A stretch of 64,000 nucleotides of DNA from Planctomycetota bacterium (GCA_023150555.1 JAKLKQ010000006.1:51726-115725); one strand, 5' to 3'; numbered from the stretch's first letter, positions 3,065 to 54,532 are shown. Notes: generated by a model not told the origin, from the sequence alone. Program-made: numbers and translations.

Positions 3065-3585
3065 TTTCAAGTATTACACTCCGATTATCGTCTTGGGTCA
3101 AGAGCGTTTTTATCGATTTCCTTTCCCGCTCAGTATGAGAATGCCGCGAACCATAGTTCATTTTACAGTCATAAATCGTTTGTTTACTTGAGTTAAAATA
3201 CATAGCTAATGAACATAGAACTAGGTCGAGAAATTATTTTCACGCACGCTGGCCACCAGCTGATAGTGGTTTCTCGGGCCGAAGAGGGGGTGAAAAAAAT
3301 TTCGAGGTGCGCTGGTTCCGTTAATTTCATGCCCTCAAAGGACTTTGGACCTATTAAAATAAGAATTGATATGGCTCGGACGTAAAAAAACATTGTGCAG
3401 ATGTTGACTCCTCGCGAAACTCGGTTTTTATAGGCTGATCGGGCGCTCGAGGGCCGGGTGGAAGCTCATGTCGGAATGCATCCTACAAGGTGCATGCCTA
3501 ATAAATACTTACTTTGGGGTCTCCCATTCTGCCTCGGCGCAGGCTCCCGCTGTGGGATTTGCGCCACGCCCAAATTACGCGGAGG

Positions 3586-4395
3586 ATGGTGGTCATGTTA
3601 CTTTCGTATGCGCAACGGCGCCACATGTACGAGCACGGCTATGTCAGCGTGCCCGGCGTCGTGCCCAAGGTGATGGTCGATGCCGCCTTGCGGGCCATAA
3701 ATCACTCGCTCGGCGAAGGCCTGCCTCAGGAAGAGATCCTCAAGCTGCGCGCCCAGTCGTACTGCCGCGAACTCCAGACCGATCCTGTCGTCACCGACCT
3801 GCTCAACAAGACCCCCGCCTGGACCCTGGGCGAGGAGATGATCGGCCAGCTTAAACCGCGCAAGAGCGCCCAGATCGCGTTGCGCTTCCCCGGGAAGGTG
3901 GGTCCACCGGGCAAGCTCGGCGGGCACCTCGACGGCCTGCCGACCAAGGACAACGGCGTCCCCGTCGACGGGAAATACCACAACTTCACGGCGCTCTGCG
4001 TGATCCTGCTCAGCCGCCTCGACGGTCCCTTCGCGGGAAACTTCACCGTCTGGCCGAGCAGCCACCGCAAGAACGAGCAGTACTTCCGCGAGCGCGGCCC
4101 CGAGTCGTTTCTCAACGACGGCATGCCGAAACTCGACTACGGCGAGCCCGTGCAGATCACCGGCGAGCCCGGCGACGTCGTCTTCGCGCATTACTCGACG
4201 GTCCACACCGCCGCGCCGAACTTCAGCCCGCACGTGCGCTACGCTGCGATCTACCGGCTCGAGCACAACCGCCGCGCCAACGGCGAAAACAGCTACGGGG
4301 ACGTGCTGACGAACATCTGGAAGGAATGGCCCGGCATGCGCGAGTTCGCCCCGGAGGCGGGCTTGCTGGAAGAGGCCAGGGTATCTAGCCCTTGA
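3586..4395 (+). CDS. Phytanoyl-CoA dioxygenase (PhyH) family Fe(II)/2-oxoglutarate oxygenase
   Basis: HLDG...HYSTVHTAAPN-type His/Asp/His facial-triad spacing and PhyH-like length. The ORF track starts at 3514, but the ggagga RBS followed by ATG at 3586 is the better start. Confidence 0.7.
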   Translation: MVVMLLSYAQRRHMYEHGYVSVPGVVPKVMVDAALRAINHSLGEGLPQEEILKLRAQSYCRELQTDPVVTDLLNKTPAWTLGEEMIGQLKPRKSAQIALRFPGKVGPPGKLGGHLDGLPTKDNGVPVDGKYHNFTALCVILLSRLDGPFAGNFTVWPSSHRKNEQYFRERGPESFLNDGMPKLDYGEPVQITGEPGDVVFAHYSTVHTAAPNFSPHVRYAAIYRLEHNRRANGENSYGDVLTNIWKEWPGMREFAPEAGLLEEARVSSP

Positions 4396-4432
4396 TCGAT
4401 AGGCGACTGGTCCTCTCCTGTCGATCTACCCC

Positions 4433-4467
4433 GGGGGCGCGTCGAAAGGCGCGCCCCCAACCTTTTG
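4433..4467 (+). terminator. Rho-independent terminator after the PhyH gene
   Basis: 9-bp GC stem GGGGGCGCG/CGCGCCCCC with a 7-8 nt loop, followed by aaCCTTTTg. Confidence 0.5.
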
Positions 4468-4590
4468 AAAGCATCGCAACCTGTTGTAAATAAATATGTT
4501 ATGTATGAATTTTAGCCTCGTTTTCCCACACCCTTTGGGCCCTTTCGCGCCACTGTCTTATGCAGGTGCGCTTTGCTATAAGGGCATGCC

Positions 4591-5133
4591 GTGACGACGA
4601 TGAGCCGCGACGAACTCGAAGCCCTGGTCCTGGCCCACCAGGCCGAGCTCTACCGCTACGTCCGCTACCTGGGCGCCGCCGACGCCACCGCCGCCGAGGA
4701 CCTCGTCCAGGAATCCTTCCTCGCCGCCTTCAAGAGCGAGAACGCGCCGGCCGCTTCGGAGCCCGCACGGCGCGCCGCCTGGCTGCGCGGCATCGCGCGC
4801 AACCTCTTCCTGCAGTACTGCCGCAGCCGCCGCACCAGCCCCGTGCAGGTCGATACGCAGGCGCTGGAAGCCGGCGAGCGCTTCTGGGCCGAGGACTTCC
4901 TGCGCGGCAGCGACGGCTTCGAGTACATCGAGGCCCTGCGCGGCTGCATGGAGCGCCTGGAAGAGAAGCCCCGCCGCGCGCTGGACCTCTTCTACAAGCA
5001 GAAGCTCTCGCGCACCGACGTCGCCGCGGCCTTCCAGATGACCGAGAACGGCATCAAGTCCTTCCTCCAGCGCGTCCGCGCGGCGCTGGGCGACTGCATT
5101 GAACGGCGCGTCAAGACGGAGCACGGCGGATGA
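4591..5133 (+). CDS. ECF (sigma-70 family) RNA polymerase sigma factor
   Basis: Sigma70 region 2 (ELYRYVRYL...DLVQESFL) and region 4 (ALDLFYKQKLSRTDVAAAFQMTENGIKSFLQRVR). GTG start. The stop overlaps the next gene by 4 nt. Confidence 0.85.
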   Translation: MTTMSRDELEALVLAHQAELYRYVRYLGAADATAAEDLVQESFLAAFKSENAPAASEPARRAAWLRGIARNLFLQYCRSRRTSPVQVDTQALEAGERFWAEDFLRGSDGFEYIEALRGCMERLEEKPRRALDLFYKQKLSRTDVAAAFQMTENGIKSFLQRVRAALGDCIERRVKTEHGG

Positions 5134-6512
5134 ACCGCGACGAAGCCCGCGACCGCCTCGTCGACACGCTCCTGCACGAGGCCTGCGGCGGCGAAGAGCC
5201 CCCGGATCTAAGCGCCCGCGTGCTGAGCCGCGCTTTCCCCAATCAATCCATCTTCGCGCGCGGCAAATCGAAGCGCGTCGACTGGCGCCTGTGGGGCCCG
5301 GCCTTCGGCGCCGCCGCGCTGATGGGCATCGTAGTCGGCCTGTGGCTGGTGCTGGCCAATCGCCCGGCTGCGCCCATCGTGGAGAACAATCCTCCGGAGA
5401 AGAAGGCGCCCGCGCGGCAGCCGCAGGACCGCAAACCCGCGCCGCAACCTGAAGTCGCACCGCAGCCCGAAGTCCCCGAGGTGGAGGATCCCTTCCGCCC
5501 CGGCACCATCGTGCAGACCCACGGCGAGCCCAGAAAGATCGAACTGGCCGGCTACTGCGCGCTGGAACTCATGCCCCACAGCACGCTGAAGATCGAACAG
5601 GCCAAGGGCACCGGCGACGCCCACACCACCCAGGTCGCGCTGCATGCCGGCGCCCTGGAATCGTCGGTCGAACCCGGCCAGGGCGGCTTCGCCGTCACGA
5701 CCGAACTCGGCGCCGTCGCGGTGCTGGGCACGCGCTTCATGGTCAAGCTCGCGCATACCGACGGGCCGCGCGGCGAGGGCAATCGCAAGGGCGAGGGCCG
5801 GCGCCTCGAAATCAAGGTCGCCGAAGGCAAGGTCAAACTCGACGCGCCGATGGGCGACCTCATCCTGAACACCGAACAGAAGGAAGGCGGCATCTTCACC
5901 GGCCTGCTGGTGGGGAAGGACCGCGAGAACAAGAATATCGAAGTCAAGGCCGACTACGACGACGGCGTGCTGAAGCTGGGCCCGCGCTGGATCGGCGGCA
6001 TGCCCGACGCCGGCGGCGGCCCGGACAAGGAAGCGCAGGAGCGCATCGCCAGGGTCTATCCCAGCCACCGCGTGCGCGTGCTGTGGGTGCGCGCCGAAGG
6101 CCCGCGCGTGGCCGGCGTCGAACTGCTGCCGCCCGAAGCCAAGGAAGGCACGGACGAAGGCCGCGTCACCTTTATCGGCGACGCGATGATCGAACTGCGC
6201 ACGACCGCCGGCACCTGGGAGCGCTACATGGCGCGGCAGGTGAAGGGCGACGGCGGGCGCTGGCGCCCCGATGGCGAGATCCTGCACCAGATCGAGCGCC
6301 TGAAGAAGGGCGACCGCGTACGCGTCAGTTGGAAGTACAACGAGCGCAAGCAGATCGGGCGCATCGAGATGCTCGACGGGCCGCGCGAGGGCGCGAAGGA
6401 ACGCGAGGGGCGGGACGCTCCGGTCGAACGGGAAGGCCGGGAAGGAAAGGACCGCAAGGAAGGCGACCGGCCGGCGCAGCCCGACCGCCCCAAAAAAGAT
6501 CGTGACTTCTAA
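5130..6512 (+). CDS. FecR-domain transmembrane anti-sigma factor with a C-terminal tandem-repeat domain
   Basis: Short cytoplasmic N-terminus, one TM helix (GPAFGAAALMGIVVGLWLVLA), a FecR-like segment (AVLGTRFMVKL), then two ~65-aa repeats carrying PRW-x-GG and RVRV-x-W motifs. The gene overlaps the sigma gene by ATGA. Confidence 0.75.
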   Translation: MNRDEARDRLVDTLLHEACGGEEPPDLSARVLSRAFPNQSIFARGKSKRVDWRLWGPAFGAAALMGIVVGLWLVLANRPAAPIVENNPPEKKAPARQPQDRKPAPQPEVAPQPEVPEVEDPFRPGTIVQTHGEPRKIELAGYCALELMPHSTLKIEQAKGTGDAHTTQVALHAGALESSVEPGQGGFAVTTELGAVAVLGTRFMVKLAHTDGPRGEGNRKGEGRRLEIKVAEGKVKLDAPMGDLILNTEQKEGGIFTGLLVGKDRENKNIEVKADYDDGVLKLGPRWIGGMPDAGGGPDKEAQERIARVYPSHRVRVLWVRAEGPRVAGVELLPPEAKEGTDEGRVTFIGDAMIELRTTAGTWERYMARQVKGDGGRWRPDGEILHQIERLKKGDRVRVSWKYNERKQIGRIEMLDGPREGAKEREGRDAPVEREGREGKDRKEGDRPAQPDRPKKDRDF

Positions 6513-6557
6513 GGCGAGCGCATTTTCCGCAACCGCAATGAAAGGGGAACGACGACA

Positions 6558-7115
6558 ATGAAGACGAATGCTTGGACGCTGGGCGTGCTGCTGCTGGGCG
6601 TGGTGGCGTGGGGCGCGCGCGCCGAAGGCGATGGAGCCGAAGGCGGAACCGTCAGCGGCGTGCTGGTCAAGAAGGACGGCGCGACGATCTTCGTGAAGAC
6701 CGACGGGACCGAAGAGGCCGTGAAGTACCGCCCGCGCTGGACCGGCGGGAACCCCGACCAGGGCGGCGGCTTCGACAAGGCGATCGAAGAGCAGATCAAG
6801 AAGATCCCCGTCACCAACCGCGTGCGCGTGACGTGGGTGCTCGAGGAAGGCCGCCGCGTCACCGCCATCGAGTGCGTGAAGCCCGAAGGCGAGAAGGGCG
6901 TCGACGAAGGCACCGTGACGGAAGCCGGCGAGAACTTCATCGAAATCCGCACCGCGGCGGGGACTTTCGAACGCTACCTGCCGCGCTGGCAGGAGGGCGG
7001 GCTCGACAAGGAGATGCTCGCGAAGATCAAGACGTTCAAGGCCGGCCAGAAGGTCCGCGTGGAATGGGTCTACGACGAACGCAAGCGCGTCGTCGGCATC
7101 AGCGGGCAGGAATAA
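6558..7115 (+). CDS. Secreted protein made of two copies of the PRW-GG / RVRV-W repeat (paralogous to the anti-sigma C-terminus)
   Basis: Signal peptide MKTNAWTLGVLLLGVVAWGARA. Two internal repeats (KYRPRWTGGNPDQGGG...RVRVTWV and FERYLPRWQEGG...KVRVEWV) align to the C-terminal half of the upstream anti-sigma factor. Confidence 0.7.
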   Translation: MKTNAWTLGVLLLGVVAWGARAEGDGAEGGTVSGVLVKKDGATIFVKTDGTEEAVKYRPRWTGGNPDQGGGFDKAIEEQIKKIPVTNRVRVTWVLEEGRRVTAIECVKPEGEKGVDEGTVTEAGENFIEIRTAAGTFERYLPRWQEGGLDKEMLAKIKTFKAGQKVRVEWVYDERKRVVGISGQE

Positions 7116-7146
7116 CGCGCCACTATTTTGGGATGCGGAGACAACC

Positions 7147-8196
7147 ATGAACAGCGATCGCAGACGCTTTCTGCTCCTGACTCTCGGCGCCGGAGGCGGC
7201 GCACTGCTGGGCCTCTCCCGGGGCCTGCGCGGTGACGCCGGGCACGCGGCCATCGCGACACCTGCGCCCGTTCCGGCGCCGGCGGACCTCGTCGCCGCCG
7301 AACGCAGCGGCCACGCGCTGGGCGCGAAGGTGGCGATCCGCGCGCTGCACGCCGACGGCGTTACGGCGCAGGCGGCTGCCGACGCGGCCTGGCGCGAACT
7401 CGAGACCGTCGAGGCGCTGATGAGCATCTACCGGCCCTCGAGCGAAGTCTCGCGCCTCAACCGCGACGGCGTCCTGACGGACCCGCATCCTTATACGGTG
7501 GCGGTCCTCACGACGGCGCAGGAACTCGCCGCTCAGAGCGACGGGGCCTTCGACGTCACCGTCCAGCCGCTGTGGGCGCTGTACAGCGCGCACCGCAAGC
7601 TTGGCGGCCTGCCGTCCGAAGATGAAGTCGCCGCCGCTCGAAAGTTCGTCGACTGGCACAAGCTCGAGGTGAACGCCAAGCGCATCCGCCTGGGCGCGCC
7701 CGGCATGGCCGTGACGCTGAACGGCATCGCGCAGGGCTACGCCGCCGACCGCGTGCGCGCCGCGCTTGCGGCGCACGGCATCGAACACGCGCTGATCGAC
7801 ACCGGCGAGATCGGGACCTTGGGCGACAAGGGCGCAGGCACGGATGCGCCGTGGAAGGTCGGCATCCAGCACCCGCGCGAGGAGAACCAGTACATCGCGC
7901 TGGCCGCGCTGCAGGGGCGCTGCCTGGCGACCAGCGGCGACTACGAGACGTTCTTCACTCCCGACCGCGTGAACAACCACATCTTCGATCCGCGCACGGG
8001 GCATTCGCCGCGCGACCTCAGCAGCGTCACCGTCGTGGCCGCCGACGCCACCCGCGCCGACGCGCTCTCGACCGCCGTCTTCGTCGCGGGTCCCGAGCGC
8101 GGGCAAGCGCTGCTGGAAGCGGCGCCCGGCGCCGAGGCCCTGCTGGTGCGCAAGGACGGCAGCATCCTGGCGACCAAGGGCTTCCCGAAGGCCTGA
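7147..8196 (+). CDS. apbE: FAD:protein FMN transferase ApbE (flavin transferase), Tat-exported
   Basis: Twin-arginine signal SDRRRFLLLTLGAGG. ApbE family motifs SRLN, GIAQGYA and TSGDYE. About 350 aa. Confidence 0.85.
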   Translation: MNSDRRRFLLLTLGAGGGALLGLSRGLRGDAGHAAIATPAPVPAPADLVAAERSGHALGAKVAIRALHADGVTAQAAADAAWRELETVEALMSIYRPSSEVSRLNRDGVLTDPHPYTVAVLTTAQELAAQSDGAFDVTVQPLWALYSAHRKLGGLPSEDEVAAARKFVDWHKLEVNAKRIRLGAPGMAVTLNGIAQGYAADRVRAALAAHGIEHALIDTGEIGTLGDKGAGTDAPWKVGIQHPREENQYIALAALQGRCLATSGDYETFFTPDRVNNHIFDPRTGHSPRDLSSVTVVAADATRADALSTAVFVAGPERGQALLEAAPGAEALLVRKDGSILATKGFPKA

Positions 8197-8224
8197 CCGC
8201 GCGGAAACGAAGAGGAGATTCCGA

Positions 8225-9595
8225 ATGCGCTCGAGCGTTTCGTCCCGCACGTTGCTTGCCGCCGCGCTGCTCGCCTGCTGCGCGGGCTCGGCCTGGTCGG
8301 CGGAGCTGGTCCTGACCAACGGCATCCGCGTGAAGGGTACCATCGCGAAAGAAGACGCCAACGGCTTCGACGTCGACGTCGGCGGCGCGCAGATGCACTT
8401 CGACCGCGCGAAAGTCTACACCGTCAGCGACCAGGGCAAGGTGCGCGTGATCACGCCCAAGGAGGTGGCCGTGCCCCCGCCTCCACCTCCGCCGCCGCCA
8501 ACAGCGACGAAGGCCGAACCGCCTGCGACGCCCGCAAAGAGCGAACCGCCGCCGCCCGCGCAAACACAAACCGCGCCACCCAGCGCGACAAAGACCGTCA
8601 CACGCACGCGCGCCGAAGTCGAGGCGCTGATCAAGAAGGAGGGCACCAGCAAGCCGCCCTGGTGGGACCAGTCGAGACTCAACTACCCGCAATCGCTGGA
8701 CATGACATGGCCCTTGAAGCCCAACGGCGGCTGGAACAACCAGGTCAACGTCGGGCAGTACATCTGGGACATCGTCAATCCGAACCCCGACCGCTGGCTG
8801 GAAGGCCTGCGCCTGGTCCACCACCTCATGCAGACCCACGCCAACGACGCCGAACTGCTCAAGCGCGACCTGCGCACCCTCGGCAGCATGTACCACAACC
8901 TGATGGAAGACTACCCGCGCGCGGCCTGGTTCTGGCGCAACGCCGGCGCAAATCACGAAGGCGTCGCCGATTGCTACTGGAAGATGGGCTGCAAGGAGAT
9001 GGCCGTCGAACTGCTCAAGCAGCTCGGCAACGACGACACGCGCCACGGCACGATCATCAAGCTCTGGGCCGACATGGGCGAACTGGACACGGCTCTGCGC
9101 CTGGCCGAAGCGAAAGCCAAGGACGGCCGCCCCGAGGTTGCCTACCTGGCCGCCGGCGAGGCCTGCCGCAAAGCCGGCCAGTTCAAGCGCGCGCTCGATT
9201 TCTTCCAGCGCGTCCTGGCCGTGCAGCAGAACGACACGCAGACCCGACAGAACGACTTCAAGCAGACCTACGAACGCGCGAAGGCCAGCATCGAAGCCAT
9301 CCAGGTCTACGAGATGCTCGACCTCGCGAAAGTCCGCGACGGCACCTACTCCAGCGACAGCTACGGTTACTCGGGGCAGGTCTTCGTCGACGTGACCGTC
9401 CAGCGCGGGAAGATCACCGACGTGAAGGTGCCGCGCCATACCGAGCGTCAATTCTACGGCGCCCTCGACAACACGACGAAGCAGATTCTGGACAAGCAGA
9501 GCGTGAAGGACATCGACACCTTCTCCTCCGCGACGATCACCAGCGAAGCCATCGTCAACGCGGCCGCCAAGGCCCTGGCCAGCGGCATGAAATAG
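8225..9595 (+). CDS. Secreted FMN-binding-domain protein (probable ApbE flavinylation substrate) with a Pro-rich linker and helical middle domain
   Basis: Signal peptide, a 10-proline run, and a C-terminal FMN_bind-like domain (YSGQVFVDVTVQRGKITDVKV...SVKDIDTFSSATITSEAI) with the D-x-x-S-S-A-T flavinylation-like motif. Confidence 0.75.
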   Translation: MRSSVSSRTLLAAALLACCAGSAWSAELVLTNGIRVKGTIAKEDANGFDVDVGGAQMHFDRAKVYTVSDQGKVRVITPKEVAVPPPPPPPPPTATKAEPPATPAKSEPPPPAQTQTAPPSATKTVTRTRAEVEALIKKEGTSKPPWWDQSRLNYPQSLDMTWPLKPNGGWNNQVNVGQYIWDIVNPNPDRWLEGLRLVHHLMQTHANDAELLKRDLRTLGSMYHNLMEDYPRAAWFWRNAGANHEGVADCYWKMGCKEMAVELLKQLGNDDTRHGTIIKLWADMGELDTALRLAEAKAKDGRPEVAYLAAGEACRKAGQFKRALDFFQRVLAVQQNDTQTRQNDFKQTYERAKASIEAIQVYEMLDLAKVRDGTYSSDSYGYSGQVFVDVTVQRGKITDVKVPRHTERQFYGALDNTTKQILDKQSVKDIDTFSSATITSEAIVNAAAKALASGMK

Positions 9596-9624
9596 GCTGC
9601 GCAGGCGCGCTACGGACGGGATAG

Positions 9625-11517
9625 ATGTTCCGACTCGATTTTTTCCTTCCGTTCCTCGCGCGCCCGCGGAAGGGCGAGGCGCCCCGCGCGCCGGGGCGCC
9701 TGGCCCGCGTCGCGCGCGTCGTGCTGCCCGCCGCGCTCTTCTCCGATCCGGCCGCCGCGAAGCCCGGGCTGGTCCGCCGCGCGCTCAAGAAGATCGGACC
9801 CATCACCGCGTATTCCCCGTTGCGCCGCGCGGTGCAGGCGCTCTGCTTCGTGCTCTTTCTCGTGCTTTTCTTCCACGTCTGCTGGCCGTACAGCGCGCAG
9901 CCCGGCGGGAAGCTGGAGCTGGATAGCGGCGCGTGGCCCGCGCACTACGCGATCGACCTCGACGCGAAGGAGTGGACCGAGGCGGAGCTCTTCCTGGTGC
10001 TCGACCCGCTGGTGGCGCTCTCGACGGCCGTCGCCGCGAAGGCGTGGGTCTGGTCGCTCGCCTGGGCGGGCGGCATCCTCCTTATATGCGTGCTCTTTCC
10101 GCGCGGCTTCTGCGGGTACCTCTGCCCGCTCGGCACGCTGATCGATTTCTTCGACTGGGCGATCGGCAACCGGGTGCAGCGCTTCAAGATCGAAGGCGAC
10201 GGCTGGTGGGTGCACTTTAAGTACTACCTGCTCGCGGGAATCTTCCTCGCGGGGTTCTTCGGCGTGCTGCTGTCGGGCATCTTCGCGGCGATCCCGGTGA
10301 TCACGCGCGGCTTCCTCTTTATCTTCGGCCTGCTGCAGATGGGCCTTCTGCGGGGCTGGCACCAGGTCCCGCCGCTGAACGCCGGGCATTACGTCTCGAT
10401 CGCGCTCTTCCTGGGCGTGCTCGGCCTGGGTCTGCTGCGCAAACGCTTCTGGTGCCGCTACGTCTGCCCGTCGGGCGCGGTCTTCAGCGTCTTCAACCGC
10501 TTCCGCGCCAGCGAGCGCAAGGTCGAGTCGAGCTGCATCCACTGCGACAAATGCATCGAGGTCTGTCCTTTCGACGCGATCAAGGCCGACTTCACCACGC
10601 GCACGCCCGACTGCACGCTCTGCCAGACCTGCGGCGGCGTCTGCCCCACGCACTCGATCAAGTTCGTCGAACGCTGGAACGTGCAGGACCTCAAGCCCCA
10701 GAACGATCCGCCCACGATGGAAGTGCCGCTCAGCCGCCGCAACTTCCTCTACGGCGCGCTGGGGTCGCTCGCCGCTGTCAGCGGCATGCGCAACGTTTTC
10801 GGCGCGGATCTCGGGAGCTCCAACGCTTTCCTACCCGTGCGCCCGCCCGGCAGCGTGCCCGAGCCCGAATTCCTGCAGCTCTGCATCCGCTGCGGCGAAT
10901 GCTTCAAGGCCTGCCCAAACAACGTGCTTCAGCCGCTGGGCTTCGAGCAGGGCTTGGAAGGTCTCTGGACGCCGCAGGTCGTCGCCGACTGGTCGGGCTG
11001 CGAGACCAGCTGCAACAACTGCGGCCAGGTCTGCCCTACGGGCGCGATCCACGCACTGTCGCTGGAAGAGAAGAAGGTCGCGCGCATGGGCCTGGCCATC
11101 GTCAACCGCGAGACGTGCCTGCCGTGGGCCGGCAAGGAAGCCTGCCAGCTCTGCTTCGACGAATGCAATGCCGCGGGTTACCGCGCGATTGAGTTCCAGA
11201 ACGTCGGCACGCAGGTCGACGAGGAAGGCCTGCCCATCGACGGCAGCGGCTTCCTGGCGCCGGTGGTGAAACCCGAACTCTGCGTCGGCTGCGGCCTGTG
11301 CCAATCGCGCTGCCACCACGCCGTCGTGCAGCTGAAGAAACTCGAAGAGAGCGCCATCGTCGTCGAAGCCGGCGCCGGCAAGGAAGACCGTTTCATGCAG
11401 GGCAATTACCTGGAACTGCGCGCGCAGGAAGCCGCCGAGCGCCGCCGAAAGCAGGAAGAGTTCGAGAAGGCGCACGGCGCGGCCGGCGACGGCTACCTGC
11501 CGGAGTTCCTGAAATAA
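9625..11517 (+). CDS. NapH/MauN/NosR-type membrane polyferredoxin (multiple 4Fe-4S clusters)
   Basis: Membrane CGYLCPLG and CRYVCPSG motifs typical of NapH/MauN/NosR, followed by several CxxCxxCxxxCP ferredoxin motifs (CIHCDKCIEVCP, CTLCQTCGGVCP, CIRCGECFKACP, CNNCGQVCP, CVGCGLCQSRC). Confidence 0.8.
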   Translation: MFRLDFFLPFLARPRKGEAPRAPGRLARVARVVLPAALFSDPAAAKPGLVRRALKKIGPITAYSPLRRAVQALCFVLFLVLFFHVCWPYSAQPGGKLELDSGAWPAHYAIDLDAKEWTEAELFLVLDPLVALSTAVAAKAWVWSLAWAGGILLICVLFPRGFCGYLCPLGTLIDFFDWAIGNRVQRFKIEGDGWWVHFKYYLLAGIFLAGFFGVLLSGIFAAIPVITRGFLFIFGLLQMGLLRGWHQVPPLNAGHYVSIALFLGVLGLGLLRKRFWCRYVCPSGAVFSVFNRFRASERKVESSCIHCDKCIEVCPFDAIKADFTTRTPDCTLCQTCGGVCPTHSIKFVERWNVQDLKPQNDPPTMEVPLSRRNFLYGALGSLAAVSGMRNVFGADLGSSNAFLPVRPPGSVPEPEFLQLCIRCGECFKACPNNVLQPLGFEQGLEGLWTPQVVADWSGCETSCNNCGQVCPTGAIHALSLEEKKVARMGLAIVNRETCLPWAGKEACQLCFDECNAAGYRAIEFQNVGTQVDEEGLPIDGSGFLAPVVKPELCVGCGLCQSRCHHAVVQLKKLEESAIVVEAGAGKEDRFMQGNYLELRAQEAAERRRKQEEFEKAHGAAGDGYLPEFLK

Positions 11518-11795: not shown

Positions 11796-13382
11796 ATGGC
11801 ACTCCTGGAACAGATTCTCTCGTACAGCGGCATGCTCGTGGGCGGCGCGGTGCTGCTGGTGCTTGCGGCGCTGCTGCTGGTCTCCCTGCTCAGCGCGTTT
11901 CTGCGGCCCGCGTCGGTGAGCGAGGTCCTCAGCGACCTGCGCGCGATCCGCGAACGCGACCCGGCGGCCGAAGGCTGGATCGCGGCGATGTTCTATCCCG
12001 GCTGGTGGGCGCTCTCGGGGCACCGCCTGGTGGCCAACCCGCTCTACCGCATCGGGCTGCGCACGCCCGCGCGGCTGGTGAACTTTCTGCTGCGCCTGCT
12101 GACCGGCACGGACATCCATCCCGGCGCGAAGTTCGGGCGCGGGATCTTCATCGACCACGCGCACGGCGTGGTCATCGGCGAGACGGCCATCGTCGGCGAC
12201 AACGTCACCATCCTGCACCAGGTCACGCTGGGCGGCACCGGCAAACAGACTGGCAAGCGCCACCCGACCGTCGAGGAAGGCGTGCTGATCTCGGCGGGCG
12301 CGAAGGTGCTGGGCAACATCGTCGTCGGCAGGAACGCGAAGATCGGCGCGGGCTCGGTGGTCGTGCGCGAGGTCCCGCCCGAAAGCACCGTCGTCGGCGT
12401 GCCAGGCCGCGTGGTCGTCAGCGCCGGCAAGCGCATCCCCAGCGTGACGCTGGACCAGACCGACCTGCCGGACCCCATCGTCGAGCGCCTGATGGCCCTG
12501 CAGGAGGAGCTGAAGAGCTGGGAGAAGAAACTCGAGGAAGACGAAGTTGAGCTGCATCGCATCGGCGGGCGCGCCAGGCGCGACGTGCTGGCCGAGATCG
12601 TCGAGCACAAGAAGACCGAGGTCGCCGCCGCGAAGGGTCTTTGTCCGCTGGATGCACTCCGCGGCACGCCGGGCAAGCGCGGCGCTGCGCGGAGTTTTCA
12701 TGCCGCACTGAAGGCCGAGGGCCTCTCGCTGATCGCCGAGATCAAGAAGGCCAGCCCCAGCGGCGGCCTGCTGCGCGCCGACTTCGATCCGAAGGCGATC
12801 GCGAAGATCTACGAGCATGCGCACGCCGCGGCGCTGAGCGTGTTGACCGACGAGAAATATTTCCAGGGGAAGCTGGATTACCTGGCCGAGGTTCGCGCGG
12901 CCGCGGCGCTGCCGCTGCTGCGGAAGGATTTCATCATCGACGAGTACCAGGTCGTCGAGGCCGCGCGCGCGGGCGCCGACGCCGTGCTGCTGATCGCCGC
13001 GTGCCTGAACGATTCGCAGCTGAAGGGCTATCGCGAGCTGGCCGAACGCGAGGGCCTGGACGCCCTGGTGGAAGTCCACGACGAGGCGGAACTCGAGCGC
13101 GCGCTCGCCAGCGGCGCGAAGATCCTGGGCATCAACAACCGCAACCTGAAGACGCTCAAGACCGACCTCGAGACGACCTTCCGGCTGCTCGACAAGCTCG
13201 ACCCGAAGACCCGCGCCGGCCTGGCCGTCGTCAGCGAGTCGGGCATCAAGACCCACGCCGACATCGAGCGCCTGCTGCACGCGGGCGTCGACGCGGTGCT
13301 GATCGGCGAAACCTTCATGCGCGCGCCCGATATCGGCGCAAAGGTCCGTGAGCTGCTCGGCGTGGGCCAGTATTCGATCTGA
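11796..13382 (+). CDS. Serine O-acetyltransferase (CysE) fused to indole-3-glycerol-phosphate synthase (TrpC); start uncertain (possible GTG near 11915)
   Basis: N-terminal half has the CysE hexapeptide core DIHPGAKFGRGIFIDHAHGVVIGETAIVGDNVTILHQVTLGG. C-terminal half has IGPS motifs LIAEIKKASPS, SVLTD..YFQG, LRKDFI, LGINNRNL and SESGI. One uninterrupted 528-codon ORF. Confidence 0.75.
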   Translation: MALLEQILSYSGMLVGGAVLLVLAALLLVSLLSAFLRPASVSEVLSDLRAIRERDPAAEGWIAAMFYPGWWALSGHRLVANPLYRIGLRTPARLVNFLLRLLTGTDIHPGAKFGRGIFIDHAHGVVIGETAIVGDNVTILHQVTLGGTGKQTGKRHPTVEEGVLISAGAKVLGNIVVGRNAKIGAGSVVVREVPPESTVVGVPGRVVVSAGKRIPSVTLDQTDLPDPIVERLMALQEELKSWEKKLEEDEVELHRIGGRARRDVLAEIVEHKKTEVAAAKGLCPLDALRGTPGKRGAARSFHAALKAEGLSLIAEIKKASPSGGLLRADFDPKAIAKIYEHAHAAALSVLTDEKYFQGKLDYLAEVRAAAALPLLRKDFIIDEYQVVEAARAGADAVLLIAACLNDSQLKGYRELAEREGLDALVEVHDEAELERALASGAKILGINNRNLKTLKTDLETTFRLLDKLDPKTRAGLAVVSESGIKTHADIERLLHAGVDAVLIGETFMRAPDIGAKVRELLGVGQYSI

Positions 13383-13420: not shown

Positions 13421-16414
13421 GTGATACTTTACCTTCTTACAACCTATTCGAAACCGGAGGGTGCCGCCGTGGCCGAAGAGCGCGAGATCAACCTGTCCGA
13501 GAAGTTCCCCGACATGACGCCGCTACGCGGCGCGCCGTCGCTGGGCACCATCAACGGCATCGGCGTGACGCTGACCGGCCGGCGCGACTTCGACGCCGAG
13601 ACCGGCACCTACGTGAAGACCCGCAGCCTCTGCTTCCTGTTCATCCCGCTGGTCCCCATGGACGCTTATCGCGTCGCCGACGCACGCGGCGGCGGCTGGT
13701 ATTTCATCGGCAAGGTGCCCCTCTCGGGCTTCTGCAAGATCTGGAACCTCTGCATCCTGGGCCTGATCCTGGCGTGCATCGGCGCCGGCTACATCAACAG
13801 CTACTACGCCAGCCCCGAGTACGTGAACGGCCAGCGCCTGACCGAAGCCCGAAACCTGAGCGGCAACGGAAAGACGGAGGAGGCGCTGGGCAGGTACGAG
13901 GCCGTCGCCGCCAGCGGCACCAGCCACGCCAGCACCGCGAAGGCCGAAGCTCTGGAACTCTTCCAGGAACGCGTTGGCCAGTGCGACGCCGCCGAGGCCA
14001 AACGCCTGTTCGCTTTCCTCGCCGCGCGCCGCAACGCGCCGGCGCATCTGGTACCCGACCCGACGGCCGCCGAAGCCGCCGCTGCCGCCGTGGCGCGATA
14101 TAAGGAGCAGGACCCGCTGGCCGCGTTCGAGATCCACCGCCTGGCGCGCGTCTTCACGCCCAACCCGCCGGATCCCGACCCGGACTACGAGCCCCTGCTG
14201 GAGGCCGCGCGCGCCGCGCACCCCGAGAACAACGAGCTCGCCATCGAGGCCGCCGCGAATTTCGAGAAACTCGGCCAGCTGGACAAGGCCAAGGCCACTC
14301 TGGAACCCCTGGCCGGGAAGCTGGGCGCCACCGAAGGCGCGCGCATCCTGGGGCAGCTCTACGCGCGGGAGGAGCAGCACGAAAAGGCCTTCGCGCTGCT
14401 GGAACCCTACGCGCAGCAGCACCTGAGCGCCCTGCACGCGGCCGACGACGCCTATGAGAAAGCGCTGAAGGCCAGCAACGACCGCGCCATCGACGAACTC
14501 AACCGCAAACTGACCACCGACCCGTGGGTGCGGCAGTACCAGAAGCAGGACAAGGCGGGCCAGGAGAAGATGGTCAGCGAATACGTCCTGGAACGCATGA
14601 AGGTGGACTCCGCGCTCCATGCGGTTCAGGAGAAACTGGCCCAGGCAGCTTCGACCGTCCCGGTCGCGCTGGATCTGGGCATCGTCCGCCTGTACCGCGG
14701 GCGCGAGATAAAGGATCCCGAGGCCAAGAAGAAGGAGCTCGAGGCCGCCGAGAAGGTCTTCCTCTCCATCCGCAACGTCGCGGGCGAGTCCGACGCCTAC
14801 CGCATGTACTACGGACAAGTCCTGTACTGGCTCGGGAAGCACGAGGAAGGAAAGGCGGCCTTCGACGAATTGCTCGCCTCCAAGAACCGCAACCACGAGA
14901 CGCTGCTGGGCGTCGGCAATACCCTGCGCGAAATTGGCGCGCATTCCGAAGCCAACGTGTTGTTCGAGGAAGCCTACAACCAAGCTACGAAGGTGGAGGA
15001 GAAGCAGCAGGCCGCCGCCATGCGCCGCCTTTCCGCCAACGACATGGACGACCACATCCTCTGGCTGGGGCGCTGCGACACCAGCAAGCCGCACGTCCAG
15101 GCAAGCCTCGAGGCCGCCAAGGGCAAGAAGATGCTCAGCGACGGCGACCGCGCGGGCGCCATACCGCACCTGAAGGCGAGCATCGCGGCGTGGGAGAAGC
15201 TCCCCCGCAGCGACGGCTCCCTGAACGAGATCGCGCTTGCCCAATCCTCGCTCTTCTATGCCAGCGGCGACCCCGAAGCGTTCCGCCAGGGCGCAAAGCT
15301 GCTGCGCGAGGCCGTGGGCCTGAATCCCAGCGACAGCATTCTGGTCCTGAACGCGGCGTCCAGCCTGCTCGAGGCATCCGTCCTGGACGAGGTGTCCGGA
15401 AAGCTCAATTTCACGCACGGCGGCATCTCCATCGACCTGGATCTCCTCGACTATTTCGCCGGCGAACAGAAGGACGAGCAGGCGCTGCGCGCGCGGATGC
15501 AGGCGCGCACCGACTTTAAGGACGCCAAGAGCCTGTATCGCAAGGCGATTCTGCTGGCACCCCGGAATGCCGGCGGGTACGGCACCTTGCGCGAAATCTA
15601 TGCGTGGGAAGACGATCTCGACGCGCTCAAGGAACTAAAGACTGCGCTCAAGGGCATCGAACTGGTCGGCGAGGACCAAAAGGCGAAGACGCTGGCGTTC
15701 TACGCGGGTTCGAACGACCCCGCCATCATTGGCGATTGGGACAAGGCGCTCGCTACGGGACGCACGCAGCTCGCCTCGGTTCCTAAGGATAAGGAAGCGA
15801 TGACCTGGGTCGTCACGGCCGGCACCTACATCCAGACGTGCCTGGCCGCGCACGCGATAGGCAATCCCATCGAACTGGAGCCGCTGTTCCGGATGGCCCA
15901 ACAGGCCTACGCCATGGCGCCCAGCAACGGCACCTCCAGCATCCTTTCCACCATGCACCTTTACCGCGCCTTCGAACGCCTGGCGGCCGCCAACCCGGCC
16001 TTCAAGGAGGGGCAGGAGCGGAACAGCCGCGTGATGAGCCGGACGCAGTACTTCGCGCTGGCCCTGGAACAGATACCGGCACTGCGCGATCCGGCCCGTC
16101 AGGACCCCGACGTGAAGGCAGCCCTGGACCTGATGCGCGAGCAGGACAGGAAGTTCCCGAAGCACCCCAGCGCGTGGAAGTGGGCGGTCTGCAAATACCT
16201 CGATCCAGAGGAAGCCGAAGTCATCGCCAAGGACCTGCACGCGGATCCGATTTCGCCGATCGCGCAGGACGTCCGCGAGATGATCTATCCCATGTCCGGA
16301 AACCATGCCCTGTACGGCCTCTGGCTGCGGCGCGTGCTGGGGCAGGAAGGCGAAGGCCTGGCGCTGTACGAAGCCTGCCGCAAGCGCGGCGTGCCTTTAC
16401 CCGAAAAGCCGTAG
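13421..16414 (+). CDS. Large TPR-like repeat protein with N-terminal membrane anchors (hypothetical)
   Basis: Two hydrophobic helices near the N-terminus, followed by ~850 aa of alpha-helical repeat sequence. Protein-like composition throughout. Start codon uncertain. Confidence 0.6.
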   Translation: MILYLLTTYSKPEGAAVAEEREINLSEKFPDMTPLRGAPSLGTINGIGVTLTGRRDFDAETGTYVKTRSLCFLFIPLVPMDAYRVADARGGGWYFIGKVPLSGFCKIWNLCILGLILACIGAGYINSYYASPEYVNGQRLTEARNLSGNGKTEEALGRYEAVAASGTSHASTAKAEALELFQERVGQCDAAEAKRLFAFLAARRNAPAHLVPDPTAAEAAAAAVARYKEQDPLAAFEIHRLARVFTPNPPDPDPDYEPLLEAARAAHPENNELAIEAAANFEKLGQLDKAKATLEPLAGKLGATEGARILGQLYAREEQHEKAFALLEPYAQQHLSALHAADDAYEKALKASNDRAIDELNRKLTTDPWVRQYQKQDKAGQEKMVSEYVLERMKVDSALHAVQEKLAQAASTVPVALDLGIVRLYRGREIKDPEAKKKELEAAEKVFLSIRNVAGESDAYRMYYGQVLYWLGKHEEGKAAFDELLASKNRNHETLLGVGNTLREIGAHSEANVLFEEAYNQATKVEEKQQAAAMRRLSANDMDDHILWLGRCDTSKPHVQASLEAAKGKKMLSDGDRAGAIPHLKASIAAWEKLPRSDGSLNEIALAQSSLFYASGDPEAFRQGAKLLREAVGLNPSDSILVLNAASSLLEASVLDEVSGKLNFTHGGISIDLDLLDYFAGEQKDEQALRARMQARTDFKDAKSLYRKAILLAPRNAGGYGTLREIYAWEDDLDALKELKTALKGIELVGEDQKAKTLAFYAGSNDPAIIGDWDKALATGRTQLASVPKDKEAMTWVVTAGTYIQTCLAAHAIGNPIELEPLFRMAQQAYAMAPSNGTSSILSTMHLYRAFERLAAANPAFKEGQERNSRVMSRTQYFALALEQIPALRDPARQDPDVKAALDLMREQDRKFPKHPSAWKWAVCKYLDPEEAEVIAKDLHADPISPIAQDVREMIYPMSGNHALYGLWLRRVLGQEGEGLALYEACRKRGVPLPEKP

Positions 16415-16487: not shown

Positions 16488-17924
16488 ATGAGCAAATCCG
16501 AAAGTCAAAAATTGCTGTACTTGGATCCGTTCAGCGGGATCGCCGGCGACATGCTCGTCGGCGCGCTGCTGGACCTGGGCCTGAATCTCGAGTTCCTCGA
16601 GGCCGAGCTGAAGAAGCTGAAGCTCGATGGGTATACCCTTTTCTCCGGACCCGTCCTGCGCGGCGCGATCGCCAGCACCAAGTTCGACGTGCTCATCAAC
16701 GGCCAGACCGAAGCCCAGCACGGTCACGCGCACTGCGGCTGCGATCATGATCATGCCCATTCGCACGACCACGAGCACGAGCACGGCCATTCGCACGAGC
16801 ACGAACATCATCACGATCACAGTCACGACCACGACCATAAGCACGATCATGGGCATCATGATCACGGCCACGGCCATCACCATCATCACCAGCACGGCCA
16901 TGACCACAATCACGAGCATCGCCACGCGCACGACCACCGGCACTTCGGCGACATCAAGAAGATGATCGAAACGAGCGGGCTCAGCGCGGGCGTTAAGGCG
17001 CGGAGCCTGCGCGCGTTCGAACTGCTTGCCGAAGCCGAGGGCCGCATGCACGGCCAGGCGCCGGAGCAGGTCGCCTTCCACGAAGTCGGCGCCGTCGACA
17101 GCATCGTGGACTTCGTCGGCGCGTGCATCGGGCTCGAAGCGCTGGGCATCACCGAAGTCCTCTGCGGGCCCATCGCGCTGGGCGGCGAAGGCGGCGGCTA
17201 CGTCGACTGCGCGCACGGCAAGCTTCCCGTCCCGGCCTTCGCCACGCTGGAGCTGATGAAGGGCCTTCCAGTGCGCCCCTGCGCCGTGAACAAGGAACTC
17301 ACCACGCCCACCGGCGCCGCGCTGCTGAAGGCGCTGGTCACCGACTTCGGCCCGCTGCCGCCGATGCGCATCGAGAAGATCGGCTACGGCGCGGGCACGC
17401 GCAACGATCCGAACATCCCCGTGCCGAACGTCCTGCGCGCCGTACTGGGCACGTTGGACGCGAAGGCTTCCGGCGACGACGCGGAGTCCGACACCATCGT
17501 CGAGATCCAGGCCAATGTCGACGACGCCGCACCCGAAGTGCTGGGCTACCTCAGCGAGAAGCTGCTGGCGGCCGGTGCGCTGGATGTGTTCTTCACGCCG
17601 GTGCAGATGAAGAAGTCGCGCCCCGGCACGCTGGTGACGGTGCTCGCCGACGCCGCGCACTTCGACGCGCTCGCCGAAGCGCTCTTCCGCGAGACGCCCA
17701 CCTTCGGGCTGCGCTACGAGCACAAGCAGCGCCGCAAACTCGCGCGCGAGACCGTGACCGTCGAGACGCCCTGGGGTACGGTGCGCGTGAAGCTGGGCCG
17801 CTGGCGTGGCGCGTTCATGAGCGCGCACCCCGAGTACGAGGACTGCAAGGCGCTGGCCGAGCAGAAGGGCGTGCCGCTGCGCCAGGTCATCGACGCCGCG
17901 CGCGCGGCCGCCCCGAATGCGTAA
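16488..17924 (+). CDS. larC: LarC (nickel-pincer cofactor nickel-insertion protein, DUF111 family) with a ~75-residue His/Asp/Glu-rich insertion
   Basis: N-terminus LLYLDPFSGIAGDMLVGALLDLG and a conserved C-terminal domain. The insertion runs HGHAHCGCDHDHAHSHDHEHEHGHSHEHEHHHDHSHDHDHKHDHGHHDHGHGHHHHHQHGHDHNHEHRHAHDHRH. Confidence 0.85.
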   Translation: MSKSESQKLLYLDPFSGIAGDMLVGALLDLGLNLEFLEAELKKLKLDGYTLFSGPVLRGAIASTKFDVLINGQTEAQHGHAHCGCDHDHAHSHDHEHEHGHSHEHEHHHDHSHDHDHKHDHGHHDHGHGHHHHHQHGHDHNHEHRHAHDHRHFGDIKKMIETSGLSAGVKARSLRAFELLAEAEGRMHGQAPEQVAFHEVGAVDSIVDFVGACIGLEALGITEVLCGPIALGGEGGGYVDCAHGKLPVPAFATLELMKGLPVRPCAVNKELTTPTGAALLKALVTDFGPLPPMRIEKIGYGAGTRNDPNIPVPNVLRAVLGTLDAKASGDDAESDTIVEIQANVDDAAPEVLGYLSEKLLAAGALDVFFTPVQMKKSRPGTLVTVLADAAHFDALAEALFRETPTFGLRYEHKQRRKLARETVTVETPWGTVRVKLGRWRGAFMSAHPEYEDCKALAEQKGVPLRQVIDAARAAAPNA

Positions 17925-32964: not shown

Positions 32965-34239
32965 TCACTTGGCTTCGTTGTACTCGATGCCCTTCTTGCC
33001 AGCCTGAGCCTTGAGCATCTTCATCACCTCGCCGTCGAAGCTCTTGTCGCCGCTGCCCTTCTTGGCCAACTCATCCTTGATGAATTCGGCGCGCTTCTTG
33101 CCCAGATCCTCGATCTTGGCCTGGATCTCCTTGCGCTCGGCGGCCTTCTTTTCCAGGAACGCCTTGCGCTCCTCTTCGCTCATCTTCTGCATCTCGTCCG
33201 GCAGTTCCTCGGCCTTGGTGTTGGCCAGCGCCTTTTCTCCGCCGGCTTCGAAAGCAGCCACCAGGTCGGCTTTGCCGACTTCGCCGCCCAGGCCCATGCC
33301 GGCCATCTCGGCCGGGGGCGCACCGCTGGGACCGGCGGCAGCGGGAGCGGCGGCGCTGGTCTTGGCGCGGAATTCGCTCTTGTCGGCGGCGACGGCCAGC
33401 TTGGCGCCGTCCCCACCCTCAGCCGCATCCTTGGCTTCGGCCTCGGCCTTGCGGGCTGCGCCGCGGGCCATTTCACGCCGCTTGGCGTCGCCGTAGTAGA
33501 CACCGGTGCCGACCAGCTTGCCGGACAACTCGGCCATCTCCTTGTCGTAGGGCGTCGCCACGACCTGCACCCCGCCGCTCTGTGCGATCGACGTGTAGCT
33601 GCCTTCGGCCTTGGCGGCGATTTCCTTCCAGGTCGTTTCGGTCTCGGCGTTGCCGCCGCAGCGGACCGTGTTGATGACGATGTCCTTCAGCACGGCGGCC
33701 TTGCAGAGTTCCGGGTACTTGGTGTCGTCGGTGTAGTCCATGTGCGGCGGCGCGTCGCCGACCAGGAAGATCACGCGGTAGACCTTCTCGCCCTTCGGCG
33801 ACCAGCCGATGCGATTGACCGCATCGCCCAGGCCCTGGTTGACGGACTCGGGCGTGTCGCCGCCGCCCTTGGCGCTGAGCGCGAAGAGCTTCTGGTGGAT
33901 CTCGTCCAGGTTCGCGGTGAGGTCCGTCACCTGCGTGACGTACTCTTCCTTCTTGTCGCGGTAGGCGACCAGGCCCACCTTCACCTCGGGCACCGGCTTG
34001 CCGCTGACGATGCCGTTGACGATGCTCCAGATCTTCTGCTGCGCGCCGGCGATCAGGCCGGACATGCTGCCGGTGGTGTCGATCACAAAGACGACCTCGA
34101 CGCGCGCGCGGGCGGCCGGTGCGTCGGGTTTCTTGCCGCCGTCGGCCAGCAGGTCTGCGGCGGATGCGGTGAAGGTGCAGAAGGCAGCGAGCGCCAAAAG
34201 CGCGGCCAGCTTGGGAAGGGTCTTCGTCTTCGCGTACAT
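32965..34239 (-). CDS. Secreted von Willebrand factor type A (vWA) domain protein with a Lys/Glu/Ala-rich helical C-terminus
   Basis: Signal peptide, plus a MIDAS motif VVFVIDTTGSMSG with downstream T and D residues. Confidence 0.75.
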   Translation of the reverse strand: MYAKTKTLPKLAALLALAAFCTFTASAADLLADGGKKPDAPAARARVEVVFVIDTTGSMSGLIAGAQQKIWSIVNGIVSGKPVPEVKVGLVAYRDKKEEYVTQVTDLTANLDEIHQKLFALSAKGGGDTPESVNQGLGDAVNRIGWSPKGEKVYRVIFLVGDAPPHMDYTDDTKYPELCKAAVLKDIVINTVRCGGNAETETTWKEIAAKAEGSYTSIAQSGGVQVVATPYDKEMAELSGKLVGTGVYYGDAKRREMARGAARKAEAEAKDAAEGGDGAKLAVAADKSEFRAKTSAAAPAAAGPSGAPPAEMAGMGLGGEVGKADLVAAFEAGGEKALANTKAEELPDEMQKMSEEERKAFLEKKAAERKEIQAKIEDLGKKRAEFIKDELAKKGSGDKSFDGEVMKMLKAQAGKKGIEYNEAK

Positions 34240-34265
34240 CGTGGGATCTCCTCGTTCGGTTCCGG

Positions 34266-40780: not shown

Positions 40781-40894
40781 ATGCGAGACAGTCTACCGGC
40801 GCCCCGTTTCTCCGTCCAGCGCGCGCGGGTATCTCCATTCATGCCGGGCGCGCACGCGCGCGCCGCCGATTCGATAGATGATGAGGAGCCGACC

Positions 40895-47618: not shown

Positions 47619-47645
47619 CGTCTTGCTCCGGCTTTCGGCGCCTGC

Positions 47646-48266: not shown

Positions 48267-48394
48267 TTCGATTCGCTCGGGCTCCGCTCCCCTGCGCCCG
48301 CCACCGCTTTCGCCCCCCACTACGGATGAGAGCGACTTTTCTTAGCGCCTCCGGACCGAATTCCGAGAATTCCGGCGTCGCGAAAGGCTTGCCA

Positions 48395-54490: not shown

Positions 54491-54514
54491 GGCCGGTTCT
54501 CCTATCAACTGCAT

Positions 54515-54532
54515 TGATACTACTTTTAATCA
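54515..54532. promoter_or_regulatory. LysR-type box TGAT-N10-ATCA in the divergent promoter region
   Basis: An inverted-repeat T-N11-A motif 25 bp upstream of the LysR start, inside an AT-rich 127-bp divergent region. Confidence 0.4.

Follow-up and report, generated by a model that had tools for sequence, protein, structure and literature searches.

NapH-like flavinylated systems are operationally defined by a multi-transmembrane (TM) iron-sulfur protein, recognized by PF12801 (Fer4_5) or K19339, that is encoded in a cluster with ApbE or with an FMN_bind gene carrying a signal peptide (Meheust 2021, eLife, PMC8238504). In that survey, the protein binding flavin mononucleotide (FMN) is separately encoded in 539 of 2465 NapH-like clusters, which thus form a minority sub-class, and the characterised nos and pce systems are viewed as electron-transfer components with flavinylated proteins; the main text mentions neither Planctomycetes nor sigma factors nor tetratricopeptide repeats (TPR) (PMC8238504). 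Here, we describe a locus of this class in a 64,000-nucleotide stretch of DNA from a Planctomycetota bacterium (GCA_023150555.1 JAKLKQ010000006.1:51726-115725), which was analysed as a whole and is referred to as the window. Six genes between positions 4591 and 11517 encode an extracytoplasmic function (ECF) sigma factor, a FecR-type anti-sigma factor, a secreted protein with OB-fold repeats, ApbE, a TPR-FMN_bind flavoprotein and a polyferredoxin. The locus is a NapH-like flavinylated system, since Fer4_5 is found in two stretches of a protein with at least four TM helices and the ApbE and FMN_bind genes lie immediately upstream, and it is a lineage-specific form of the class already described. 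We consider it rather probable that an extracytoplasmic electron-transfer module of two genes, which is widespread in Planctomycetota, is present in the window as a copy regulated by an ECF sigma factor. The locus contains the following features:

4520-4554, + strand, candidate promoter of the ECF type or cis-element (GTTTTCCCA-CACCCTTT-N13-CCACT), 46 nt ahead of the sigma start codon (ATG 4600)
4591-5133, + strand, ECF sigma factor with Sigma70_r2 and r4_2 (TIGR02937 53.8 bits, cutoff 42.9)
5130-6512, + strand, single-pass FecR-type anti-sigma factor (Pfam FecR 38 bits, cutoff 24)
6558-7115, + strand, secreted 185-aa protein with two OB-fold repeats, paralogue of the periplasmic domain of the anti-sigma factor
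7147-8196, + strand, ApbE exported by twin-arginine translocation (Tat) according to its N-terminal DRRRFLL; flavin adenine dinucleotide (FAD):protein FMN transferase (Pfam ApbE 256 bits, cutoff 25.6)
8225-9595, + strand, TPR-FMN_bind flavoprotein of 456 aa with signal peptide (FMN_bind 50.5 bits, cutoff 22, aa 381-451)
9625-11517, + strand, NapH-NapG fusion polyferredoxin of 630 aa, MCK6470971.1 (Fer4_5 52 bits; NapH and NapG models)

With the NapH-like class, the locus shares ApbE, a signal-peptide FMN_bind gene, a multi-TM PF12801 protein and the location of the FMN domain in a separate gene, and, as for most of the class, no substrate is known (PMC8238504). It differs by the large conserved TPR-like domain of the flavoprotein, the NapG-like fusion and the sigma/FecR genes in front. 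New here are the fusion to a TPR domain, the NapG fusion and its conserved tail, the circuit of an ECF sigma factor and an OB-fold sensor with its soluble paralogue, and the candidate promoter. A prior interpretation of the window, made from the sequence alone and called the sequence-only reading in the following, had described the locus as a split NosR-like module. The mechanistic analogy is apt: NosR/NirI proteins, and likewise PceC/RdhC, also combine an ApbE-flavinylated periplasmic FMN domain with a membrane polyferredoxin that possesses two CX3CP and cytoplasmic [4Fe-4S] motifs. The locus does not belong to NosR itself, as the score with the NosR model NF046105 ('transcriptional regulator NosR') is 30.2 bits (cutoff 1000), the FMN_bind gene is separate and no nosZ was found in the 64 kb; nor is the split layout new, given the 539 clusters mentioned above. 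In contrast to the NosR-type proteins, the FMN domain is unfused, an additional periplasmic domain with four clusters, predicted to depend on Tat, is present, and neither nosZ nor nirS nor rdhA is found near the module. Because of this Tat-translocated, NapG-like 4x[4Fe-4S] domain, the iron-sulfur wire of the window would already extend into the periplasm, unlike that of NosR.

The six genes are co-directional on the + strand and tightly packed, as proposed earlier. The sigma and anti-sigma genes overlap by 4 bp (ATGA), the remaining gaps measure 45, 31, 28 and 29 bp in order, and the G+C content at third codon positions is 0.87-0.93 in all six open reading frames (ORFs), as in real genes (the genome has 67% GC). 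No terminator-like sites were found between the operon genes. A G+C-rich hairpin followed by T's at about 4431-4468 ends the upstream PhyH-like gene, after which an AT-rich stretch leads to the sigma gene; at the other end, a gap of 278 bp containing a sigma-70-like promoter match separates the last operon gene from an unrelated CysE-TrpC fusion gene. The gene order is identical on independent assemblies of the same organism and is also kept in a sister species (locus L090), where the anti-sigma factor is 78% identical. Domains were assigned by Pfam and NCBIfam hidden Markov model searches, with bit scores judged against the family cutoffs. The assignments made from the sequence alone, namely an ECF sigma factor, a FecR-type anti-sigma factor, a Tat-exported ApbE, a secreted FMN-binding-domain protein (FMN_bind 50.5 bits, signal peptide) and a NapH-type Fer4_5 protein, were all confirmed by these scores and signals. 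The same is true for the claimed lack of nosZ and nap nearby: Pfam scans of nearly all larger candidate ORFs of the 64-kb window revealed no nos, nap or nir genes.

The conserved part of the locus became apparent from a comparative set of 80 loci, for which one genome per species was used. More than 330 flavoprotein homologues were found, with typical identities of 50-56% across the TPR and FMN regions, and those with a name are nearly all labelled Planctomycetota, including Phycisphaerae and Sedimentisphaerales. The 80 loci, too, are almost all from Planctomycetota (Phycisphaerae, Sedimentisphaerales, Pirellulales, Planctomycetaceae and Thermoguttaceae); a few lie in bins labelled Verrucomicrobiota, Lentisphaeria or Armatimonadetes, and one belongs to a cultured strain, Novipirellula herctigrandis CA13. 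A polyferredoxin homologue (49-71% identical) is the next gene on the same strand in 68 of the 80 loci, with a gap of no more than 400 bp in 57, and ApbE is encoded immediately upstream of the FMN-protein gene in 27. All-against-all clustering of the neighbouring ORFs revealed no other widely shared neighbour or terminal enzyme, only lineage-specific synteny. The conserved unit is therefore the TPR-FMN_bind and NapHG gene pair, without a terminal enzyme. Variants of the pair exist: it is tandemly duplicated in L007/L010 (6221-13279), and in L035 (9884-15435) two FMN-protein genes and a secreted beta-propeller (336 aa, GPDGNLWFTE repeats) precede the polyferredoxin gene. Thus, of the six-gene unit that the sequence-only reading expected to be conserved together, the pair of FMN-protein and polyferredoxin is retained across genomes, and the complete set of six is not.

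The gene product at 7147-8196, which is annotated as 'FAD:protein FMN transferase' in its NCBI record, is identified as ApbE by its Pfam score and is targeted to the extracytoplasmic space by the twin-arginine signal DRRRFLL; its score lies below the cutoff of the E. coli ApbE equivalog (118 vs. 498). The presumed substrate of ApbE is the flavoprotein, which consists of a signal peptide, a small beta domain (aa 26-75), a Pro-rich linker, a TPR-like domain (about aa 127-362) and the FMN_bind domain (aa 373-455). In the AlphaFold model, which has a confidence score (pLDDT) of 84, the Pro-rich linker is disordered and the TPR-like domain, delimited there as aa 129-362, is all-helical. This helical domain gives generic TPR matches only, yet it is very strongly conserved: it is invariably present in the homologues, Trp, Asp, Arg and Gly are invariant at many of its positions, and Cys250 (8972-8974) and Cys314 (9164-9166) are invariant in 26 of 26 aligned homologues. 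In most aligned homologues, a Cys succeeds the N-terminal hydrophobic run, so that lipid anchoring of the flavoprotein is possible. The canonical ApbE target motif is D-x-x-[S/T]-G-A-[S/T] (PMC12052999). In the alignment of 26 homologues, D431, A436, T437 and T439 are invariant within the motif D-x-x-[ST]-[SGA]-A-T-[IM]-T-S, and Thr437 (nt 9533-9535) is the predicted flavinylated residue. A comparable arrangement is that of FmnB and PplA in Listeria, where an ApbE-type enzyme flavinylates a secreted or lipid-anchored FMN_bind protein, which relays electrons from the membrane to external acceptors. The window differs from it in that a polyferredoxin, instead of Ndh2, demethylmenaquinone and EetAB, would feed the membrane side, that the organism is diderm, and that extracellular acceptors are not evidenced.

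The protein at 9625-11517 had been taken for a polyferredoxin of the NapH/MauN type. Its Fer4_5-containing part is indeed NapH-like, but it is not a plain NapH/MauN protein, since it additionally contains a NapG-like half and an internal helix preceded by SRRNFL. The NapH-like part (aa 65-354) comprises four hydrophobic TM helices, the motifs CGYLCP and CRYVCP, and two cytoplasmic CxxCxxCxxxC [4Fe-4S] motifs; the NapG-like part (aa 369-598) carries four further cluster motifs, which lie after TM5. The corresponding NCBIfam matches are TIGR02163 for NapH (72 bits, aa 125-347) and NapG (110 bits, aa 369-598). Both parts are joined by SRRNFLYGALGSLAAVSGM, in which the twin-arginine motif SRRNFL (aa 370-375, nt 10735-10740) stands before the weakly hydrophobic helix TM5 (mean hydropathy 1.08 vs. 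1.85-2.35 for TM1-4), and this internal RR motif is retained in nearly all of 65 polyferredoxin homologues. It was experimentally shown that a NapH-NapG fusion polyferredoxin, MLMS-1 PFD, is inserted into the membrane jointly by Sec and Tat (Tooke 2017, eLife, PMC5449189). The window protein resembles it in the four-TM NapH-like part, the RR motif directly before the weakly hydrophobic TM5 and the periplasmic NapG-like domain with four [4Fe-4S] cluster motifs, and is by its architecture a polyferredoxin of this dual Sec/Tat type, for which Tat dependence is predicted. In contrast to NapGH and MLMS-1 PFD, there is no nap operon, the partner would be a flavinylated TPR protein, not NapAB or NapC, and the scores remain below the equivalog cutoffs (TIGR02163 72 vs. 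213, NF007013 58 vs. 234, NF007012 110 vs. 269, TIGR00397 82 vs. 179). Judged by these scores and the absence of napA and napB, the polyferredoxin is homologous, not orthologous, to NapH and NapG.

A further difference from NapGH and MLMS-1 PFD is the conserved C-terminal tail of the YLPDFLK type. The tail Y[LIVM]P[DEG]F[LFV], usually with one last residue, follows a variable charged linker in 47 of the 65 polyferredoxins, and ten Pirellulaceae-type proteins end with [DN]PFG instead; the window protein itself ends in ...GDGYLPEFLK, with YLPEFLK at nt 11494-11514. TPR domains classically clamp C-terminal peptides. Since the TPR-like domain is invariant in the partner protein, it is tempting to speculate that the polyferredoxin holds the flavoprotein by means of this tail; the conserved YLPDFLK tail may thus dock on the TPR domain.

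The regulatory half of the operon starts with the sigma gene, whose product probably begins at ATG 4600 and comprises 177 aa, matching independent gene calls. The protein possesses regions 2 and 4 only and scores above the TIGR02937 cutoff, as is characteristic of ECF sigma factors; the best subfamily is TIGR02989 (Rhodopirellula/Verrucomicrobium type) with 106.6 bits, which is under the cutoff of 124.55. The anti-sigma factor consists of a short cytoplasmic N-terminus, a TM helix predicted from hydropathy (aa 54-78), a Pro-rich linker, the FecR domain (aa 125-237), a tandem OB-fold sensor-like domain (about aa 257-421) and a charged tail. The next gene had been described as encoding a secreted repeat protein; secretion and repeats stand, and the repeats can now be assigned to two OB-fold domains, which are 47% identical to the C-terminal periplasmic region of the anti-sigma factor. 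No Pfam or NCBIfam family matched the 185-aa protein, and there is no Pfam model for the OB domain. Word-indexed homologue searches retrieved only four near-identical proteins for the 185-aa protein and six matches for the anti-sigma factor; the family becomes visible by an exhaustive profile search, in which 473 clusters (at 50% identity) were found with E <= 1e-3 among 1.84 billion representative proteins. Among the best 150 of these 473 clusters, 31 contain FecR, six sigma-70 regions and four a domain of Ser/Thr kinases, and short, free-standing proteins are numerous. Because of this co-occurrence with FecR, sigma and kinase domains, the OB domain appears to serve signalling proteins as an extracytoplasmic domain for input or partner binding. 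The arrangement is reminiscent of FecI/FecR-type signalling, as an ECF sigma factor is translationally coupled to a single-pass anti-sigma factor with a periplasmic FecR domain. Classical FecR-type anti-sigma factors signal via a TonB-dependent transducer. No gene for a TonB-dependent receptor or transducer is found in the locus, and FecA-type signalling is therefore unlikely; the tandem OB-fold C-terminal sensor region and the adjacent gene for a soluble paralogue are further differences from FecI/FecR.

Sigma and FecR genes adjoin the module in other lineages as well. In L035, a sigma gene (57% identical) and an anti-sigma gene with two OB repeats are followed by ApbE, the two FMN-protein genes, the beta-propeller and the polyferredoxin; in L058, the genes for a sigma factor and an anti-sigma factor with OB repeats precede one for a coiled-coil protein, after which those for the FMN protein and polyferredoxin follow; and in L010 (= L007), sigma and FecR genes are divergent from ApbE, which is followed by the two tandem copies of the pair. 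The sigma factor and the OB-repeat anti-sigma factor are also encoded beside the module in the sister species L090, and a free-standing OB-protein gene beside the module is found in the window's own lineage only. The candidate promoter at 4520-4554, with the extended bipartite form GTTTTYCY-N-CACCCTTT-N13-CCACT, occurs once in the 64-kb window, where 0 matches are expected. L035 has the exact core, CACCCTTT-N13-CCACT, both 26 nt ahead of the ATG of its sigma gene and in the short spacer that precedes its second FMN-protein gene, and L008/L025, a locus without an adjacent sigma gene, has it 39 nt ahead of the ATG of the FMN-protein gene; in L090, the CCACT part is one base off (CGACT). All sites are intergenic and lie on the coding strand; in three lineages, they precede the start codon of a sigma or FMN-protein gene by 26-65 nt, whereas about 0.04 matches would be expected by chance (13 specified bases, about 2.5 Mb searched). 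The geometry of five bases, a 16-nt spacer and five bases fits an ECF-type -35/-10 promoter, as which the motif presumably serves. Furthermore, the presence of the motif before both the sigma gene and a target gene matches the pattern predicted for an autoregulated ECF regulon. In the literature library that was searched, no paper ties an ECF sigma factor to ApbE or flavinylation.

The favoured reading can be cast as follows. ApbE, exported in its folded state via Tat, would transfer FMN from FAD onto Thr437 of the secreted and possibly lipid-anchored TPR-FMN_bind protein. The fusion polyferredoxin would be inserted by Sec (TM1-4) and Tat (TM5 and the NapG-like domain) and draw electrons from the quinol pool, as NapGH does, or from its own cytoplasmic clusters. 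We infer that electrons run outward via the four periplasmic [4Fe-4S] clusters to the covalent FMN of the flavoprotein, which would remain attached to the polyferredoxin, plausibly because its TPR domain clamps the C-terminal tail of the latter, and which would reduce a small molecule or a periplasmic or extracellular acceptor encoded outside the locus. In the lineage of the window, expression might be driven by a single promoter that precedes the sigma gene and is autoregulated, and the module would presumably be stress- or signal-inducible: the FecR-type anti-sigma factor would retain the sigma factor until its periplasmic tandem-OB domain receives a signal, and the co-transcribed free OB paralogue would most likely compete for the same ligand or partner and thereby provide feedback. 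A more far-reaching version, according to which the TPR-FMN_bind/NapH-NapG pair is a self-contained, Planctomycetota-wide periplasmic reductase of a new type, with the TPR domain clamping the tail and, in a sub-clade, a hitherto undescribed ECF circuit that switches the module on and has an OB-sensing anti-sigma factor and a co-induced soluble OB decoy, is a tentative proposal that we regard as doubtful. If it were true, the reductase could serve in envelope redox repair or in the reduction of external acceptors.

Several observations weigh against the favoured reading. Conservation near the pair does not extend to a terminal reductase, an oxidase or a substrate-binding partner, and quinol dehydrogenase activity is an analogy only, since the NapH and NapG scores are far under the equivalog cutoffs. 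The hydrophobic stretch at aa 198-242 of the polyferredoxin fits one or two helices, which renders the topology ambiguous. In the flavinylation motif of the window, D431-T-F-S-S-A-T437, Ser replaces the canonical Gly, a substitution shared by about half of the 26 homologues, while the other half or so possess Gly; a Gly-to-Ala exchange in the flavinylation motif of another protein lowered flavinylation by about 50% (PMC12052999). On the regulatory side, 57 species loci have at least 3 kb of upstream sequence and could be assessed, and ECF sigma and FecR anti-sigma genes adjoin the module in only 3 of them (iterative HMM search, all ORFs). The motif is absent upstream of the other approximately 75 modules, where relaxed scoring yielded nothing over background, and a metagenome-wide scan for the extended motif returned 18 stretches, with the module solely on the already known L008 contig. 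The remaining stretches appear to be chance matches in T-rich DNA without homologues of the sigma factor or the module and were discarded.

The rarity of this adjacency is also what speaks for viewing the sigma/anti-sigma/OB genes and the ApbE/FMN/polyferredoxin genes as independent neighbouring units, in which case the module would be constitutive or otherwise regulated and the motif would bind a different transcription factor. A distant OB-bearing FecR anti-sigma factor (P0246, 29% identity) has no module encoded downstream, and L008 possesses the motif without an adjacent sigma gene, both as would be expected for separate units. Against this, the gaps of 28-45 bp are too short for internal promoters and terminator-like sites are lacking between the genes, the same anti-sigma subtype recurs beside the module in at least three divergent lineages, and the motif precedes the sigma gene in two lineages and the FMN-protein gene in two, as in an autoregulated ECF regulon. 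We therefore consider a chance neighbourhood quite improbable. Owing to the recurrence of the anti-sigma subtype and the shared upstream DNA motif, the sigma link looks real within the sub-clade; the ECF-sigma control that the sequence-only reading assigned to the unit as a whole holds at this level and not family-wide, and characterizes, as far as the compared genomes tell, a sub-clade but not the module as such.

The role and the direction of the predicted electron flow can also be read differently. The flavoprotein might take electrons from a periplasmic oxidation, supplied by an unlinked oxidase or a small-molecule donor, and the NapHG fusion might feed them into the quinone pool. Inward flow is expected for NapH-like flavinylated systems located beside the alcohol oxidase ExaA (PMC8238504), and in 13 Phycisphaerae-type loci the FMN-protein gene is directly preceded by a gene for a PQQ_2 beta-propeller of about 430 aa (e.g. 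L009 8576-9853), which may be a redox partner specific to that lineage. This neighbour is restricted to its lineage and absent from the window, and the characterised NapGH complexes are quinol dehydrogenases, which give electrons to the periplasm (Tooke 2017, discussion, PMC5449189). An inward flow is thus unlikely in our view. NosR/NirI and PceC-type proteins were long ascribed a regulatory role and are still annotated as 'transcriptional regulator NosR'. By analogy, the pair could be a redox sensor or regulator that feeds the adjacent sigma/anti-sigma switch and not a catalytic conduit, which would suit the weak similarity to NF046105, the lack of an enzyme partner gene in the locus and the physical proximity of the signalling pair in some lineages. 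We regard this as very improbable: a regulator is lacking near most of the 80 homologous pairs, six iron-sulfur cluster motifs and a covalent flavin would be a costly wire for a sensor, and the nos and pce systems are handled as electron-transfer components (PMC8238504). Outward electron transfer by a module that is under ECF control in a sub-clade remains the reading that we prefer.

Most NapH-like flavinylated systems are without known function, and the window locus offers three handles on them. The core is compact, consisting of two genes that retain at least about 50% identity in many Planctomycetota, most of which are uncultured, and it is carried by the cultured strain N. herctigrandis CA13, which could be used for genetics. 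The ECF switch of the sub-clade and the candidate promoter motif could reveal the inducing condition and hence the physiological role. In addition, a so far unannotated OB-fold sensor domain emerges, which is found on FecR anti-sigma factors and Ser/Thr kinases within a family of about 470 clusters. The locus also suggests a possible docking of a TPR domain and a C-terminal peptide between a flavoprotein and an iron-sulfur protein. The known class is extended by these features; current understanding is not overturned, and specialists will find little surprise.

Apart from the operon, the window contains several genes worth recording. Two genes resemble PhyH-family dioxygenases, at 3514-4395 (+) and 40772-41710 (+), the former directly upstream of the sigma operon and beside genes for a TetR regulator and an ABC exporter. 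Downstream of the operon, a single ORF of 528 aa at 11796-13382 (+) encodes a fusion of CysE, a serine O-acetyltransferase (aa 46-205, TIGR01172 215 bits), and TrpC, an indole-3-glycerol-phosphate synthase (aa 263-521), with a hydrophobic N-terminus; independent assemblies and the sister species likewise have the fusion called as a single gene. The ORFs at 13421-16414 (+; 997 aa) and 54474-59177 (+; 1567 aa) have a coding-like GC3 and no significant Pfam match, and the sister species has a different gene of 467 aa in place of the former. At 43284-48320 (-), a second ECF sigma gene (47646-48320) is followed by a gene for a protein of 1444 aa with vWF_A/VWA/YfbK_C domains, and both may form another pair of a sigma factor and a giant anti-sigma-like protein; a VWA/YfbK_C protein of 1024 aa encoded at 60738-63812 (+) resembles the 1444-aa protein. 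Furthermore, the region 32965-36941 (-) codes for an 891-aa VIT-VWA protein and a 424-aa VWA protein. In L008 (7440-9845), genes for a MerR regulator and a VIT/VWA protein lie directly upstream of the motif-bearing FMN-protein gene. Finally, a LarC-type nickel-insertion protein (PF01969, 463 bits) is encoded at 16488-17924 (+) and possesses a long His/Asp-rich insertion (HGHAHCGCDHDHAHSHDHEHEHGH...) near its N-terminus.

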